Source of the DNA: Paludifilum halophilum
GTDB taxonomy: Bacteria > Bacillota > Bacilli > Thermoactinomycetales > DSM-45169
Assembly (NCBI RefSeq): GCF_002245355.1
Contig: NZ_NOWF01000002.1
Location: 280,996-304,995 of the forward strand
DNA: 24,000 nucleotides
Reading direction: 5' to 3'
Shown here: positions 16,118-22,787 of the stretch, in pieces
Numbering within the stretch: position 1 is the stretch's first letter
How the letters are laid out: each line of letters opens with the position of its first letter
The notes under the pieces: generated by a model
What the model saw: only the letters and a program-made list of their open reading frames with translations
What the model was told of the DNA's origin: nothing
Database searches by the model: none
Made by a program: the position numbers and the translations under genes

Positions 16118-16570
16118 TCAGGCTTCTCCTGAGTTTCGGGATTCCAATTGATGAATTCGCGCGTTTCGGTTTTTATTACTTAATAAATGGACCAGAAGCT
16201 GATATTCCTCCATCAGCAGTTGTTCAAAAAATTTCATTTCCTCCCGCAGTTTTCGATTCTCTTTAAGGAGACGATCCAACTGATCATGGTTGGTGCGGGT
16301 AATCTGCTCCAGTTCATCCATCCGGTTTCTGATCGATTGCGGCTCCTTCTCCATCTCCGCCCCTTTTTTATGTCGAGGGGATCCAGACGATTCCACATCC
16401 CGCACCCGCTTCACTATTTTCTTCCACCTCGCATAGCAGGCGTTTTCACTGCGGTTCAACTTTTCCGCCACCATTTCAAAGGTCTGCTTTCGCGTCATCC
16501 CGATTTTTCTGCAATTCGTCACCCATTGCAACAGAGACCGGTCTTCGTCGGCACTCCAGGAACGGGGCAA
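16118..16570 (-). CDS. RsfA-like Myb/SANT-domain regulator, diverged paralog (150 aa)
   Basis: N-terminus (RSWSADEDRSLLQWV ... NACYARWKKIVKR) follows the RsfA W-x(n)-W Myb-like pattern. C-terminal coiled coil (LDRLLKENRKLREEMKFFEQLL). Confidence 0.65.
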   Translation of the reverse strand: MPRSWSADEDRSLLQWVTNCRKIGMTRKQTFEMVAEKLNRSENACYARWKKIVKRVRDVESSGSPRHKKGAEMEKEPQSIRNRMDELEQITRTNHDQLDRLLKENRKLREEMKFFEQLLMEEYQLLVHLLSNKNRNARIHQLESRNSGEA

Positions 16571-16617: not shown

Positions 16618-17217
16618 TTATGACCCCGTTTCCCAATCCGTATCCACGCTTGACCCGCGCACCTCTTCCTCGGGCGGATGATTCACCTCGATCTCCACTT
16701 CGGTTGGTCCGTTGGCTTCTGGTTCTTCTTGACGGATAAGTGCCCCGGCGGACTGCAATAATTTCAACAAATGGGCGTACCGGTCTTTAATATCATTCTG
16801 AAAGCTATGATAAGCCTCCCACTCCTCCTTGAGTCTCCGATTCTCCTCGGCTACCCCTCGCAACTGACGCTCTTTCTTTTTCAACTGCCTTTCCAACCGT
16901 TGAATCGCTTCCCGGTCCGCCCGGTATTCACGATCGAAGGCCCGGAGTTGCCGAATCAGATTTTTTAAGGAAAAAGCAGTAGCTTTCTTTTTTTTAAGAT
17001 GGCTGGCCACCCGTTGCTTCTTCGCCTGATTGAAAGCCTCAGCCTGCTTTTTTCTTACGACGGCATTCCAGCGAAATCCGCAGGCACCGGGCGTTCGCCC
17101 GATTTTTCGGGCCACTCGTTCAAAAGCGTCCAGCTGATTTCCGCCTTCGCGAATCGATTGTAAAACCTGTTCTGCCAAAAAACGGTCCTCTTCTTCCGTC
17201 CAACTGCGCCCTTTCAT
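16618..17217 (-). CDS. rsfA: RsfA-family (prespore-specific) transcriptional regulator
   Basis: N-terminus (RSWTEEEDRFLAEQVLQSIREGGNQLDAFERVARKIGRTPGACGFRWNAVVRK) closely parallels B. subtilis RsfA as I recall it. Coiled-coil C-terminal half. RBS GGAGAAGGAGGG. Confidence 0.8.
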   Translation of the reverse strand: MKGRSWTEEEDRFLAEQVLQSIREGGNQLDAFERVARKIGRTPGACGFRWNAVVRKKQAEAFNQAKKQRVASHLKKKKATAFSLKNLIRQLRAFDREYRADREAIQRLERQLKKKERQLRGVAEENRRLKEEWEAYHSFQNDIKDRYAHLLKLLQSAGALIRQEEPEANGPTEVEIEVNHPPEEEVRGSSVDTDWETGS

Positions 17218-17440
17218 TTTAAACCCTCCTTCTCCATCGATTCTATGGGTATATTATGCGGTGCCCAAAAATCAGTGTTTCCTTCGTTTGCTTCCGTTCA
17301 ATGAAAGGTATTTTCTCAAAAGATGTAGAATTTTTCACGATAAACACAACCTGTTTTACCGGCGGGAAAAACGTGTTGTAATATGGAATAAGAACAAGAG
17401 GCGTTTAAAACGTATCCTCGCTGTGACAGGAGGTTGATTG

Positions 17441-18463
17441 ATGAAAGACGGAATGAAGCAGAGAGATTATTATTTTGATAATGTCAAATTTATTCTTATT
17501 CTTTTAGTGGTAGTCAGTCATGCTATCCGACCCATGCTCAATGAAAGCGACTTACTGAAAACGCTTTATTTAACGATGTTTTCATTTCATATGCCCTTGT
17601 TCATCTTGATTGCGGGGTACTTTGCAAAGAACTTCCGCAAACCGGAGCAAAACAAAAAAATCCTTGTCACGATTTTTATTCCCTACGTCATCTTTCAAAC
17701 GCTCTACCTGGTCTTCGACTACGTACTCTACCGACCGTCCGAATGGAACGGGTCCATCTTTGACCCCTACTGGATTATGTGGTTTTTACTCAGCCTCTTT
17801 TTGTGGCGACTGATATTACCGTATTTTATTCAGTTGAAACACCCGCTCATCCTTTCTGTCATTTTAGCGATCCTGATCGGGTATGTCAGTGATGCCGACG
17901 ATTTCCTCAGCTTATCCAGGACTGTTGCTTTTTTCCCCTTCTTTCTGGCCGGATTTTATTTGAAACGACATCATTTCGAGAAGCTGTTTTCCCCATGGAA
18001 GCGGGTGACGGCCGTCTTGGGATTGATCGGGATCACCGCTTTTCTCTATTATCTGGAATTTCATTCTCCTCTCGGTCTGAGTATCCGTAAATGGTTGTAC
18101 TTCGTATTTCCTTACGAAGAAGTGGGGCACGGGGAATGGTATGCGGGAGTCCATCGCCTTTTCTTTTACGGTTTGGCGGTTCTCTCATCCATCTTCGTTT
18201 TGACACTCATTCCCCAACGAAAGAGCATCATCAGCCGATGGGGAGCCCGTTCTCTTTATGTTTATGTGTGGCACGGATTTTTCATCGAAATCTACAAGGC
18301 CTTGGATCTGAAGGATATACTGCCTTCCCCTTACCAGCACGTGGTGATTATGGCAGGGGCCGTCCTGCTGACTTGTTTCCTAGCCTCCAATTTCGTACAA
18401 AAAATCACCCGGCCCCTTGTCCAGCCCAGGCTGGAATGGCTGTTTCAAAAAAACAACCGCTAG
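17441..18463 (+). CDS. Membrane acyltransferase family 3 protein (O-acyltransferase, no SGNH domain)
   Basis: ~10 TM. N-terminal RDYYFDNVKFILILLVVVSHAIRP is typical of Acyl_transf_3. ATG 17441 lies 7 nt after AGGAGG (the track starts one codon earlier, at TTG). Confidence 0.8.
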   Translation: MKDGMKQRDYYFDNVKFILILLVVVSHAIRPMLNESDLLKTLYLTMFSFHMPLFILIAGYFAKNFRKPEQNKKILVTIFIPYVIFQTLYLVFDYVLYRPSEWNGSIFDPYWIMWFLLSLFLWRLILPYFIQLKHPLILSVILAILIGYVSDADDFLSLSRTVAFFPFFLAGFYLKRHHFEKLFSPWKRVTAVLGLIGITAFLYYLEFHSPLGLSIRKWLYFVFPYEEVGHGEWYAGVHRLFFYGLAVLSSIFVLTLIPQRKSIISRWGARSLYVYVWHGFFIEIYKALDLKDILPSPYQHVVIMAGAVLLTCFLASNFVQKITRPLVQPRLEWLFQKNNR

Positions 18464-18823
18464 GGCGTGTCTGGTAAATCGTCGAAAGGAGCTGGGCACC
18501 GATTTCCAGCGTAGCGACGTTTGCATCCAAAGGGCACAAGTCTCGCCTCGGTCGCTCCGCTCCCGGGTCTCGCTATGCCCGACAACCTAGCGGAGTTTTC
18601 GAAGGACCGAACCAGCGGCCACTTTGCTCTTCCTTTGGCCGCTGATTCGGTCCGGAGAAAATGGAGCCGACCGTTTTGCATCCGCGGGAGGGGAACCTGG
18701 CGCGGAGTCGGAAAGCGGCCCCCGCACCCAGTTGTCGTTAATGATCAGATACACCCCAGCGAGGTGCCCGAAGATCCGGCAATCATTCACCGGGCAGACC
18801 GGAAAGCGGAGAAAGTTTGAGTA
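18464..18823. other. Unassigned GC-rich, hairpin-rich non-coding block (candidate structured RNA or long structured 3' UTR)
   Basis: No convincing ORF in six frames. 17-bp helix GGACCGAACCAGCGGCC / GGCCGCTGATTCGGTCC (18604..18620 / 18637..18653, one mismatch). Further helices (CTGGTAAATCG/CGATTTCCAG; GGGCACC 18494..18500 vs GGTGCCC 18763..18769). Direct repeat GAC(C)GTTT(T)GCATCC at 18516 and 18669. Confidence 0.3.
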
Positions 18824-18854
18824 GAAAAAACGGCGGGGAAATGTCCCTGCCGTT
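18824..18854 (-). terminator. Intrinsic terminator (minus strand; weak in the plus direction)
   Basis: Minus strand reads ACGGCAGGGA-(4 nt)-TCCCCGCCGT (one G-U pair) followed by TTTTTT. Confidence 0.65.
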
Positions 18855-19034
18855 TCTATAAAAAATGAAAAACCATCAGCTTCCGGTTTTAAAGTTTAGG
18901 AATTGGGATGATCAGGAATCGGGGATTTAAAGACAAGAAAAAGACCAGGATAGGACCTGGCCACATGAAAGAGGGTCAAGATTAAGGAGTTAAGAAGCGT
19001 GGTAGCATAAGCAAGGAGGTCAACCTCGCTTACA
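18824..19034 (-). ncRNA. Candidate ~210-nt promoter-to-terminator transcript of unknown function (alternatively the 3' UTR of the TPR gene)
   Basis: Bounded by the promoter at 19041..19069 and the terminator at 18824..18854. AT-rich. 5' hairpin TAAGCGAGG-(7 nt)-CCTTGCTTA and internal hairpin CCAGG-(6 nt)-CCTGG. No ORF with a usable RBS lies downstream of the predicted start site. Confidence 0.3.
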
Positions 19035-19040
19035 AATCTC

Positions 19041-19069
19041 ATCATACCATAATGTTCGAAATTTGTCGA
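19041..19069 (-). promoter_or_regulatory. Strong sigma-A-type promoter with extended -10, no obvious protein gene downstream
   Basis: Minus strand reads TCGACA (19069..19064), 17-nt spacer, TGG-TATGAT (19049..19041). The -35 is bracketed by a perfect 9-bp inverted repeat, ATGTTCGAA / TTCGAACAT (19052..19060 and 19088..19096). Confidence 0.5.
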
Positions 19070-19115
19070 TATGTGCTTATTATTTTTTTCGAACATTTGC
19101 GATAGTCCTTTGTGC

Positions 19116-19997: not shown

Positions 19998-20510
19998 TTA
20001 GAACGTCAGGTGCTGTTTCTTCATTTGCACCCGGTTCATGGTATCTGTCTCGTAGTAATCCAATTCATCCCTCAGTATTTCAAAGATCTTGGAAAGAGTA
20101 AATGTAACTTTTTTCATCGACTCCGGAGGCCTCCGACGGAACCGGATCGGATCATGGTTGGTATAGGAGTAACGGCTGTCCTCTTCGTACACTTCGTTTC
20201 GAGGGTAGTAAAAATTGTGGATACAAGTGTGAACCACTTCATTCAAAACACGTTCCGCAAAATCCTCGCTGAATGTTGCCCGCCTCAAAACCAAGCTGAC
20301 CTTTTCATAACCCAGTTCGCAGGATACCAATAGATAGCGCAGATCGGACAGGAATTCTTTTAAATAATCTTCCGCATCTTTCCCCTCCGGACTCTCCTCC
20401 ACCAACTTCCGGATGTCCGTATGGTTCAGAAAATGCTCTACCAGACCATGAACCTCCGACAGCTTATCCCGGGTCAATTGACACAGCTCTTTTGTTTGCT
20501 CCGCAGGCAT
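19998..20510 (-). CDS. Hypothetical cytoplasmic protein (170 aa)
   Basis: Preferred start is ATG 20510 (MPAEQTKEL), because the predicted promoter lies inside the longer track ORF (to 20594). No domain assigned with confidence. Confidence 0.6.
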   Translation of the reverse strand: MPAEQTKELCQLTRDKLSEVHGLVEHFLNHTDIRKLVEESPEGKDAEDYLKEFLSDLRYLLVSCELGYEKVSLVLRRATFSEDFAERVLNEVVHTCIHNFYYPRNEVYEEDSRYSYTNHDPIRFRRRPPESMKKVTFTLSKIFEILRDELDYYETDTMNRVQMKKQHLTF

Positions 20511-20584: not shown

Positions 20585-20686
20585 AACCGGCCAAACGCGT
20601 ACATGTCAGAGAAGTTCGCCCCAGAGGACTCTATCCTCCCCCTAGCTGAACCAGTCTTGCGTATGATGCTGTTTCTCCAAAATGCC

Positions 20687-20719
20687 AAAAAACCCGGCTA
20701 CCATCAACCGGCAGCCGGG
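20687..20719 (-). terminator. Intrinsic terminator after the 542-aa repeat-protein gene
   Basis: Minus strand reads CCCGGCT-(13 nt)-AGCCGGG followed by TTTTTT, ~25 nt after the stop at 20745. Confidence 0.65.
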
Positions 20720-20744: not shown

Positions 20745-22373
20745 TCATGAGCGAGCGGCCTCGGGAACTTCCAGCCTTACTCGACGACTGTAGTGGTTAT
20801 TCCCACGGCTTCCGCCGCAGGATTTACGGCGTCGATCCGTAAAAGGGGAAGTGACCACCCTGCCGATCCGTGCAAAACCACCGGATATGCCCCCTGAAAA
20901 AGGATTTCGTCCCCCTGATGACGGTACTTGCGGGATGCCATGAAAGATCCAGGACTGAACCGTTTTTCCGGCTCCAAGTTGAAAACCGTTGACAAATAAC
21001 CGGCTGAAAGAGGCCCCATCGCTCTGTTTCCAGATATCCAGCCGGCACAGGTATTGATCCAGAAGAAAGATATACCTGATCCTGCCGCTGTGAATAACCT
21101 TATCCACAGGATCCACGACCCGGCCGTCCACCCGGATCCGCCTCTTACCCGAAAACCAAAGCCGCTGTTCCAACCGTACCGTATGCAGGGTGCCTCCCAG
21201 TTCAAACATCCACTCTGTTTCTTTTCCATCCAATTTCAGAGGCAATAAATGTTCACCGGTATCTACACAGATTCCATCCAGAAACAACCGGAAACGATAC
21301 TCATCATCGTCCCTCTCTGAAAAAAACACCGCACCATTGCGGTTCCCGACTTTAAAGAAGTGACAACGGTTGCCGGATCTCCTCCACACGGGATGGTGAG
21401 CCAACTTCACCCCGTCCACCGTGATCATCTCTGAATAACCGGTCCGTTCGGCTGTCACCCGGTGGGAACCATCCCCTAAGTCGACCAGCCACGTTTTTCT
21501 CCGATCGGAAATATCATCACCGGCAGGGAACAACACGGTTTCCCCGGTCAAGGCGGATACCCCGTCGACCACCAGATCATATCGGTATTGTATCATGGCC
21601 TTCTTCTCGATATCTACCGCACAACAATGATCCCCAATCGAAAAAGTGTAACGAGTACTCCGTTTGTCCAAGCGAAGGCCGATACGGAGGAAAATATTTC
21701 CGTCCACTCTGACCTGAGTCTGATTCCACAAGCTTTGATGTTTCAATTCGATGGTATGAACTCCATTTTCCAGAGACAAAAACCATATCTTTTGACGGCA
21801 CTCGATCGGTGTGGGTTCAAAAAAGACAGGGAGGCCGGTTTCCCAAGAAAATCCGTCCACTGATAAATCGTAGGTAAAAGTCTCCTTCTCTTCCCGGTGC
21901 AGGTGTATTCCGATGCGATGCTTTTTCCACAAAACCAGATGATTGCTGTTTCTCTCGTCATAGACATAGCTTTCCTCCACAAGACGCCCGTTCCACCGAA
22001 TGCAGCGCTTACCGTACGGTTCATGCTGAAATGTCAATATATGAATTCCGCCGTCCAGACAAAACTCCCAACTCTTTGTCATTCCCGCCGACGGGGAAGA
22101 GCGGTGGAAAGGAAGGTCTTTGCCGTCCACCACAGAGACACCGTTCAGGGAAAAATCATAGCAATAGCCGCTAACACTGCTTTCATAAAAAATATGAAGT
22201 CCGCAGCGGTGTCCTTTAATAAAAAAGATATGGTGGGAATTACGGTCGTCGTTGAGAACCCACTCCTCCACCAACCGACGGTCTACCCATATGGTTCCCC
22301 CATTCGGCTCATGTTCCATCTCCACGACATGATGCATTCCTTCAATCTGAACTGCCCAGCTTCTTCTTTCCAT
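20745..22373 (-). CDS. Repeat protein: five tandem FAIM1-like (Fas apoptotic inhibitory molecule-like) modules plus Gly/Arg-rich tail
   Basis: 542 aa. RBS GGGAG 7 nt before ATG 22373. Modules start at W6, W102, W197, W295 and W388. Each has W-x3-L-x2-G-x-H-x-hydrophobic-x ... (V/W)(D/N)G ... (Y/F)-x-L-x-(V/L)-(D/N)-G. Tail residues 476-542 are rich in G/R/S. Confidence 0.75.
   Translation of the reverse strand: MERRSWAVQIEGMHHVVEMEHEPNGGTIWVDRRLVEEWVLNDDRNSHHIFFIKGHRCGLHIFYESSVSGYCYDFSLNGVSVVDGKDLPFHRSSPSAGMTKSWEFCLDGGIHILTFQHEPYGKRCIRWNGRLVEESYVYDERNSNHLVLWKKHRIGIHLHREEKETFTYDLSVDGFSWETGLPVFFEPTPIECRQKIWFLSLENGVHTIELKHQSLWNQTQVRVDGNIFLRIGLRLDKRSTRYTFSIGDHCCAVDIEKKAMIQYRYDLVVDGVSALTGETVLFPAGDDISDRRKTWLVDLGDGSHRVTAERTGYSEMITVDGVKLAHHPVWRRSGNRCHFFKVGNRNGAVFFSERDDDEYRFRLFLDGICVDTGEHLLPLKLDGKETEWMFELGGTLHTVRLEQRLWFSGKRRIRVDGRVVDPVDKVIHSGRIRYIFLLDQYLCRLDIWKQSDGASFSRLFVNGFQLGAGKTVQSWIFHGIPQVPSSGGRNPFSGGISGGFARIGRVVTSPFTDRRRKSCGGSRGNNHYSRRVRLEVPEAARS
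20949..22361 (-). repeat. Five tandem protein-level repeats (~93-98 codons each) within the 542-aa CDS
   Basis: Approximate module boundaries: 22361..22110, 22076..21822, 21791..21528, 21497..21237, 21218..20949. The DNA copies are strongly diverged, so this is not a recent duplication. Confidence 0.7.
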
Positions 22374-22527
22374 GGATCCGCTCCCAAAAAAGGCTGTATA
22401 TTATTATTCGTAAACTCATATTTTTTTGTGTCCTTTTCAATAGTTTTAAATCAACTTGCGGTTTAAGACCCTGTGCCCATGGATGGAATTCGTGGACTCC
22501 AACGGGACCACGGGTATTTTTTTGCAT

Positions 22528-22565
22528 CAAAAATAAAAACCCTTCACCCCATTTGGGTGAAGGGT
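22528..22565 (-). terminator. Intrinsic terminator after the 22596 small gene
   Basis: Perfect 11-bp stem ACCCTTCACCC / GGGTGAAGGGT, followed on the minus strand by TTTTTATTTTT. Confidence 0.7.
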
Positions 22566-22595
22566 CGTGCCCAAACCGGCAACCCATATGACAGC

Positions 22596-22787
22596 TCACT
22601 GATAAGGAGCCCGATTATGGTGTTGAATCGTCTGCTCGATAATCTCACTGAGGTCTTCCCGGTTCAACTTCCCCAGATCGGTAACGATCACTTCGGATTC
22701 AAGCTCTTCTTCCCGGAGTAGCTCATATAATTCAGGTGAAAAAGTCAAAATCAGTGTGGAGAGCTTCATGGTTTCCACAGCGATCAC
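22596..22787 (-). CDS. Hypothetical small acidic protein (57-63 aa)
   Basis: ORF with GAGGTGAT upstream. Possible starts are GTG 22787, GTG 22778 and ATG 22769. A strong terminator follows. No family recognised. Confidence 0.45.
   Translation of the reverse strand: MIAVETMKLSTLILTFSPELYELLREEELESEVIVTDLGKLNREDLSEIIEQTIQHHNRAPYQ

Follow-up and report, generated by a model that had tools for sequence, protein, structure and literature searches.

A stand-alone gene encoding five tandem modules

The window analysed here is a 24,000-nucleotide stretch of the Paludifilum halophilum genome (contig NZ_NOWF01000002.1, positions 280,996 to 304,995), and our subject is a gene on its minus strand (20745..22373) whose product carries five modules of predicted FAIM fold followed by a tail predicted to be disordered (hereafter the FAIM-module gene and the window protein). 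An initial annotation, made from the letters of the sequence, had proposed such a protein together with its reading frame and expression signals. The open reading frame (ORF) lies exactly there: it is a complete gene of 542 codons plus a TGA stop, it starts with ATG, and its product of 542 amino acids (aa) matches a hypothetical P. halophilum protein (P0001) at 100% identity. The expression signals were found as well, namely a ribosome-binding site (GGGAG, 22381..22385, minus strand; read from the sequence) 7 nt 5' of the ATG and an intrinsic terminator directly 3' of the stop codon (20693..20719, minus strand; an 11-bp stem with 8 GC pairs, then a T run). The same terminator scan placed another terminator (22538..22566, minus strand) behind the upstream gene for a 60-aa protein and, given the two, the FAIM-module gene is its own, monocistronic transcription unit. 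Its start codon is fixed by the alignment of the N-terminus (MERRSWAVQI) with those of orthologues (MEKRCWAVQI and MERKSWAVQI). The FAIM-module gene is a real, intact, stand-alone gene of P. halophilum, a halophilic spore-former.

Five diverged modules of ~95 aa could be located in the translation, each anchored by a tryptophan at the position that the initial annotation had named, and the strings it had quoted (SWEFCLDGGIHILTFQHEPYGKRCIRWNGR, FTYDLSVDGFS and YTFSIGDHCCAVDIE) are all present. Specifically, these are (all on the minus strand) module 1 (aa 1-97, anchor W6; 22083..22373), module 2 (aa 98-192, anchor W102; 21798..22082), module 3 (aa 193-290, anchor W197; 21504..21797), module 4 (aa 291-383, anchor W295; 21225..21503) and module 5 (aa 384-480, anchor W388; 20934..21224). 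Their mutual identity is only ~24%. When local alignments of module pairs were compared with 300 shuffles, 8 of the 10 pairs reached z = 6.7 to 22.4, with no shuffle scoring as high as the observed alignment (e.g., z = 22.4 for module 2 against module 1, 13.4 for module 5 against module 3 and 11.1 for module 4 against module 3); the weakest pairs were modules 2 and 4 (z = 3.3) and modules 4 and 5 (z = 2.7). The five-module repeat is far beyond chance, and it is seen at the protein level only, as Tandem Repeats Finder detected no repeat in the DNA. The gene is not a compositional island, its composition being that of the rest of the window. The modules align over their full length with those of orthologues (35-44% identity), and the Trp and Gly core residues are invariant in every module.

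The modules belong to the FAIM1 family

The Pfam FAIM1 hidden Markov model (HMM; PF06905) matched the whole protein in five stretches (E = 4.8e-26, 91.9 bits), above its curated gathering score of 22 bits. When modules were scanned singly, modules 2 (E = 6.8e-5, 23.1 bits) and 3 (E = 4.6e-12) exceeded the cut-off, module 3 being the most FAIM-like of the five, and the other three gave E = 4e-4 to 0.02 (module 1, 3.9e-4; module 5, 0.0029; module 4, 0.02, the last being nonetheless among the five stretches of the whole-protein match). Each module maps to positions 4-80 of the 172-position FAIM1 profile, i.e., to the half that corresponds to the N-terminal domain (NTD), and the C-terminal tail alone matched nothing in Pfam. 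FAIM's NTD and C-terminal domain (CTD) have been described as two similar eight-stranded beta-sandwiches (PMC6628066). We then built a module profile from 15 modules (those of the window protein and of two orthologues) and compared it with the PDB, where it matched human FAIM-NTD (3mx7, E = 1.5e-9) and FAIM-CTD (2kw1, E = 4.7e-5; 2kd2, E = 4.6e-4); the next match, the first to anything other than FAIM, had E = 0.067. The same profile retrieved animal, choanoflagellate and filasterean FAIM1 proteins at E-values down to 4e-19.

Structure prediction pointed the same way. The AlphaFold model of module 3, computed from the 15-module alignment, is all-beta, with 7 strands of at least 3 residues and 2 short ones, a predicted local distance difference test (pLDDT) score of 87.3 and a predicted template modelling (pTM) score of 0.78. 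On this model the module has the FAIM-type fold (about eight antiparallel strands in two sheets, as in 3mx7 and 2kw1), and a Foldseek search of the PDB returned 3mx7, 2kw1 and 2kd2 as its top three matches (probability 1.00, TM-score 0.62-0.73, root-mean-square deviation (rmsd) 2.7-3.2 Å) at a sequence identity of 21-27%. Non-FAIM structures all had E >= 0.18 and TM-scores of at most 0.42 (0.26 for the fourth match), and no viral structure was matched with E < 0.08. The model of the whole protein (pLDDT 75.8, pTM 0.61) shows five all-beta modules, with pLDDT ~90 for module 1, and a disordered tail from residue 476. Two sets of weaker matches were set aside: a Foldseek search with the whole five-module model returned beta-propeller and peptidase matches only (TM-score 0.10-0.17, rmsd >19 Å), which we dismissed as meaningless, and Pfam matches to Pam3_gp18, BT domains, Laminin_G and Fn3-II were all below their cut-offs and were taken as generic beta-sandwich noise.

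Judged by sequence profiles and predicted structure, the modules are homologous to both halves of animal FAIM, and we are highly confident of the domain identity and family placement of the window protein. The FAIM1-like reading of the initial annotation is thus borne out by the profile, domain-by-domain and structural searches it had suggested, and the human FAIM strings that it had quoted agree with the PDB sequences. The likeness to animal and other holozoan FAIM1 (Fas apoptotic inhibitory molecule 1) includes sharing of the same domain by sequence and predicted fold, with FAIM structures alone matched in the PDB, the signature W-x3-L-x-DG-x-H-x-[IV]-E-x-EH ... VDG ... Y-x-Y-D-L-x-[IV]-[DN]-G, a tandem duplication, and the lack of a signal peptide and of enzymatic motifs. 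By contrast, there are five modules, not two, in the window protein, and all are NTD-like; it is bacterial, and it ends in a Gly/Arg-rich tail. Its cysteine content is 2.0% (with 4.8% histidine), compared with the 1.4% stressed in papers on FAIM. Because it has neither the two-domain NTD-plus-CTD architecture of ~180 aa (having instead 542 aa and five modules of the NTD half) nor holozoan descent (its closest named relatives are all Thermoactinomycetaceae), the window protein is not a FAIM1 orthologue.

A basic tail stands in the place of a membrane anchor

The C-terminal tail (aa 481-542; 20748..20933, minus strand) was delimited by composition, structure prediction and hydropathy. Its 62 residues include 11 Arg and 10 Gly, its isoelectric point is 11.9, and it is predicted to be disordered (pLDDT ~30 over residues 476-542). 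It occupies the position at which relatives have 2-3 transmembrane helices; the Gly/Arg-rich tail noticed in the initial annotation is present, but it is not a feature of the family. Specifically, at least one transmembrane helix is predicted in 10 of 11 multi-module relatives (P0003-P0013), and 9 of the 11 have 2-3. We found no hydrophobic segment in the tail of the window protein (the maximal Kyte-Doolittle mean over 19 residues is 0.48, against a threshold of 1.6). A cryptic or frameshifted anchor was also considered and rejected, as the 3' end, read in all three frames, was nowhere hydrophobic and did not resemble the tails of relatives (z <= 3.3). Of the two marks of bacterial proteins that combine the module with an anchor, the window protein thus lacks the C-terminal transmembrane helix and has the other, a module that starts within the first ~6 residues without a signal peptide (W6 in MERRSWAVQI).

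The closest relative (P0002, 44-45% identity) likewise has no predicted transmembrane helix, and ends a dozen residues into the first one (TM1). Given that most multi-module relatives are anchored and that P0002 is cut inside TM1, the anchorless state is derived. At the locus of P0002 (L001, 5090-8649), the DUF3907 gene is replaced by a divergent major facilitator superfamily (MFS) transporter and a PadR regulator beside the P0002 gene; this MFS/PadR block looks like an insertion that truncated the gene. All five modules are intact in both anchorless proteins.

These observations bear on whether the window protein functions at all. One could regard it as a decaying remnant that lost its anchor when the 3' end was deleted or replaced, has no function or is turning into a pseudogene, and bears a tail translated from formerly non-coding sequence. 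The frequency of transmembrane helices among P0003-P0013 fits such a history, as do the disordered, low-complexity nature of the tail, which is unique to the window protein, and the parallel truncation of P0002 within TM1 beside the MFS/PadR insertion. However, the 480 codons of the modules are still open, with core residues kept in all five modules at 35-44% identity, the start codon, ribosome-binding site and terminator are intact, and animal FAIM is functional without any anchor. We therefore consider decay an unlikely explanation.

In the anchored relatives the modules start at residue 3-6, and neither the five-module relatives (P0003-P0007) nor the window protein has a signal peptide. Among P0003-P0007 the 20 residues before TM1 contain 5-9 Lys and Arg. 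By the positive-inside rule, we infer from this K/R-rich stretch, which most of the five-module relatives have, and from the missing signal peptide that the module array of the anchored relatives faces the cytoplasm. Having lost the membrane anchor, the window protein should then be soluble in the cytoplasm, where the basic tail could at most hold it electrostatically at a membrane or on nucleic acid. The same evidence speaks against a surface-exposed, extracytoplasmic array in which the beta-sandwich repeats would be adhesin-like. Such repeats in tandem are typical of surface proteins, and the sub-threshold Pfam matches include Fn3-like, laminin G and phage baseplate domains; but with no signal peptide, a first module that begins at residue 3-6, an anchor that is C-terminal in the relatives and follows a Lys/Arg cluster in several of them, and no cell-wall sorting or S-layer motif in Pfam and NCBIfam scans, we regard this alternative as very improbable.

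An expansion of a broad bacterial family of single-module membrane proteins

To survey homologues, we scored the module profile against 1.84 billion representative proteins (clusters) and obtained 717 matches at E <= 1e-3, 121 at E <= 1e-10 and 12 at E <= 1e-30, which fall into several architectures. The multi-module group comprises about a dozen proteins with 3-6 modules (P0002-P0013). Its named members are from Desmospora (D. profundinema, WP_309868442.1; Desmospora sp. 8437, EGK11253.1), Polycladomyces (P. subterraneus, WP_301238730.1) and Staphylospora (S. marina, WP_124727083.1; six matched stretches in the profile search), which together with Paludifilum are all Thermoactinomycetaceae. 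Five-module relatives are collinear with the window protein (the D. profundinema protein is 36% identical), and the multi-module relatives end in a conserved block of 2-3 transmembrane helices, whereas the end of the window protein is a basic, soluble tail. Among relatives with a named organism, the subfamily with 3-6 modules is so far restricted to Thermoactinomycetaceae. The initial annotation had called the five-module architecture unusual, and so it is; it is not unique, given the five-module orthologues and the relatives with 3, 4 and 6 modules in Desmospora, Polycladomyces, Staphylospora and metagenome contigs.

Two-module proteins of ~180 aa form another group, and most of those looked up are bona fide animal FAIM1 (rotifer, nematode, insect, leech and brine shrimp), with further ones from a choanoflagellate, a filasterean and a Picozoa single-cell assembly. 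The Picozoa protein (P0045) is a 168-aa, two-module FAIM-like protein that represents either a non-holozoan eukaryotic FAIM or contamination.

The majority group consists of proteins of 80-450 aa with a single module from residue ~3 (consensus MAKKxWxxxLxDGxHxVELEHGYxSGKRxIxVDG), followed by 1-5 predicted transmembrane helices. Among the best 151 of the 717 matches, helices follow the module in 98, and 17 are short fragments; all 10 single-module proteins that were scanned scored above the Pfam FAIM1 cut-off. These proteins (e.g., P0016, P0023, P0034 and P0039) carry the same module as the window protein at the extreme N-terminus (MxKKxW...), but differ in having one module with 1-5 transmembrane helices in 150-450 aa, and in coming from several phyla, compared with five modules and no transmembrane helix. 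Single-module members occur in metagenome-assembled genomes of Acidobacteriota, Cyanobacteria (Phormidesmis, Nostoc), Symbiobacteriaceae and Chloroflexia. In some of them the module is fused through membrane helices to other domains, namely Peptidase_M54 of the archaemetzincin type (P0031), DUF3592 (P0152) and DUF6585 (P0072), and such fusions might hint at what the module regulates.

We conclude that the multi-module subfamily expanded from a broad bacterial family whose members combine a single module with transmembrane helices; the multi-module form probably evolved from bacterial single-module proteins of this kind. The survey of taxonomic spread and repeat number that had been proposed thus gave 717 clusters in several phyla, with 3-6 modules in Thermoactinomycetaceae. 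Locus-level searches were of varied yield: a related-locus search found 5 single-module loci and a word-indexed homologue search with 34 single-module sequences gave 20 matches, the word-indexed search with the 15-module alignment gave none, and a related-locus search with a different alignment matched 64 stretches, of which none was confirmed. Separately, four proteins of ~1100-1400 aa (P0058, P0061, P0102 and P0151) showed 8-12 short, partial stretches matching the C-terminal part of the module profile; one of them is named cupredoxin-like copper-binding protein, and all four are probably unrelated beta-rich repeat proteins rather than family members.

Gene neighbourhood and upstream region

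The order CoA_binding_2, 60-aa acidic protein, FAIM-module gene, DUF3907 and TPR is shared by Paludifilum, locus L005 and the D. profundinema locus (L015), and its upstream half is kept in L001. By contrast, Desmospora sp. 8437, Polycladomyces and Staphylospora (L016, L017 and L018) share none of these neighbours, and three single-module loci have no neighbours in common. There is no conserved operon across the compared loci, and guilt by association was abandoned, as the neighbourhoods of multi- and single-module members are too heterogeneous to indicate a mechanism. The window protein matched no PADLOC or PHROGs family at E <= 0.01, so we see no link to defence or phages, and it had no match in NCBIfam.

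Directly upstream, with its own terminator, lies the gene for the 60-aa acidic protein (22596..22778, minus strand). This protein shares 68-81% identity with the corresponding proteins of L005 and L001, i.e., it is far better conserved than the FAIM-module protein; its C-terminus reads HH(N/H)R(A/S)P(Y/F)(Q/H), and it matched no family in Pfam, NCBIfam, PHROG or PADLOC. The neighbour on the other side, listed in the initial annotation as an uncharacterised hypothetical protein of 170 aa, turned out to be a DUF3907 (PF13047) protein (19998..20510, minus strand; E = 4e-46), and its true start is probably the ATG at 20510 (170 aa; orthologues have 171 aa) rather than the listed TTG at 20594. A few genes beyond the TPR gene are two adjacent Myb-like genes with matches to RsfA, a family of regulators of sporulation (16118-16570 and 16618-17217, minus strand; TIGR02894, E = 5.9e-33 and 2.4e-7, below the family cut-off), a pair that is also present in the syntenic loci L005 and L015. 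The syntenic loci have a DUF309 gene downstream of the TPR gene, of which tblastn found no remnant in Paludifilum within 18464-19115. This stretch of ~650 nt, adjoined by an Acyl_transf_3 gene (17438-18463, plus strand), holds no ORF >100 aa, no Rfam family and no tRNA.

In the region upstream of the FAIM-module gene we found a -10-like box, CGAATAAT (22403..22410, minus strand), 37 nt upstream of the ATG. An identical or similar box stands at a comparable distance in 5 of 6 related upstream regions (L005, L015, L016, L017 and L018; variants CGAATAA[CT], CAGAATAAT and CCATATAAT), L001 being the one without it, and its conservation suggests that CGAATAAT is probably a -10 promoter element. In L005 and L015 a TTGACA lies 21 nt upstream of AATAA[CT], a gap too long for a standard sigma-70 promoter, and a sigma-70 scan upstream of the FAIM-module gene found no match. 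By eye, CGAATAAT was compared with the consensus sequences for sigma-E, K, F, G, H, B and extracytoplasmic function (ECF) sigma factors and with the CIRCE and CtsR operators; both comparisons were unconvincing and no sigma factor was assigned.

This part of the evidence raises the possibility of a structural or morphogenetic role linked to sporulation, in which the protein, rather than being a chaperone, would be made from a sporulation promoter and form a scaffold in the spore envelope or at the membrane of the forespore or mother cell. The multi-module subfamily occurs only in endospore-forming Thermoactinomycetaceae; two RsfA-family regulators lie a few genes away in the syntenic group; most orthologues are preceded by a conserved CGAATAAT box that does not look like sigma-70 and has no properly spaced -35 TTGACA; and in a Firmicute contig a single-module relative adjoins spoIVB and spo0A. 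Yet the synteny is lost in Desmospora sp. 8437, Polycladomyces and Staphylospora, the box does not convincingly match the sigma-E, -K, -F, -G or -H consensus, and single-module members are also found in non-sporulating phyla, so that a role in sporulation appears to us rather unlikely.

Possible function of the module array

The window protein has no catalytic motif, no nucleotide-binding site and no operon partner that we could find. To our knowledge, the sole biochemistry for the FAIM fold is that of animal (mammalian) FAIM, to which proteins that are misfolded or prone to aggregate bind with no need for ATP. Taking these two points together, we propose that each module would be a protein-binding beta-sandwich, that the five equivalent modules may bind other proteins, and that the chain might serve as a multivalent, ATP-independent holdase or anti-aggregation scaffold, i.e., that the protein would act in the cytoplasm as a soluble, non-enzymatic binder. 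As a whole (a soluble chain of five FAIM modules that acts as a multivalent binding or holdase scaffold), this is the explanation towards which we lean by a little. That the protein is a cytoplasmic, non-enzymatic binder seems reasonably probable. A holdase or anti-aggregation role specifically, argued by analogy, is the single most likely mechanism, if a doubtful one on its own.

The analogy draws on several reports. In a cell-free setting and without ATP, recombinant FAIM keeps amyloid-beta from aggregating and dissolves its aggregates in part (PMC8712662), and aggregates accumulate in FAIM-deficient cells after heat or oxidative stress (PMC7056718); anti-apoptotic and ATP-independent anti-aggregation activities are known for mammalian FAIM only (PMC7056718, PMC8712662). 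An action similar to that of small heat-shock proteins, and in concert with them, has also been reported for FAIM (PMC9570119, PMC8712662). The window protein resembles small heat-shock proteins by analogy of function only, as a small beta-sandwich that would work without ATP; the fold and sequence family are unrelated, and the window protein has no Pfam HSP20 match. We know of no oligomeric cage for FAIM.

Several points weigh against the proposed binding or holdase function. The residue E38, reported as important for the contact between FAIM NTD and CTD (PMC6628066), corresponds, when aligned to the module profile, to a Leu position that is not conserved. The functional analogy spans the divergence from bacteria to animals at 21-27% identity, and we found no experiment on any bacterial FAIM-module protein in the literature. 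Upstream of the gene we recognised no regulatory element for heat shock or stress. The loss of the anchor could be a loss of function. Finally, single modules are fused to an M54 peptidase and to membrane domains of various kinds, which would suit a generic domain for dimerisation or regulation equally well.

This last point leads to an explanation in which the module is a generic domain for oligomerisation or regulation, and the window protein a self-assembling cytoplasmic lattice, or an adaptor with one or more specific partners, rather than a general holdase. FAIM-NTD has been reported as a dimer, with NTD and CTD binding each other (PMC6628066), single modules form the N-terminal part of fusions with a peptidase and with unrelated membrane domains, and the pTM of 0.61 for the whole-protein model suggests, as far as a prediction can, that the modules pack against one another. 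On the other hand, the gene neighbourhoods indicate no partner, and we judge a lattice or dedicated adaptor to be quite unlikely compared with the multivalent binding scaffold that we favour.

What is known, what is new and why it matters

The homology itself is not new. The window protein already carries PF06905 in precomputed annotation, NCBI lists EGK11253.1 of Desmospora sp. 8437 as 'fas apoptotic inhibitory molecule superfamily protein', and UniProt gives a Desmospora activa protein the name 'FAIM1 protein'. Since Pfam/InterPro and some of the names at NCBI and UniProt thus already record the match, what is new is the architecture, the context of membrane anchors and the as yet unstudied biology. 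Our literature search for bacterial FAIM-domain proteins found no paper discussing them. Papers on FAIM state that there are no homologues outside Holozoa, and call its physiological function "a long-standing enigma" (PMC7056718, PMC8712662, PMC6628066). The presence of the module in hundreds of bacterial clusters from several phyla contradicts the claim that it is confined to Holozoa. For a protein-family curator this holds no surprise; for a FAIM specialist it does, and it is experimentally usable, offering simple bacterial systems and natural single-domain proteins for finding out what the FAIM fold binds.

The bacterial distribution also raises a testable hypothesis on the evolutionary origin of the FAIM domain. 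The fold may be of bacterial origin, with animal FAIM descended from a bacterial membrane protein of one module that the holozoan stem lineage took up and then duplicated, and the bacterial modules, including the soluble five-module chain, may already have the activity reported for human FAIM, preventing or reversing aggregation without ATP. We offer this combined scenario as speculation that is unlikely to hold in full. If it were true, the window protein would represent a class of multivalent bacterial holdases as yet unrecognised in the proteostasis of prokaryotes.

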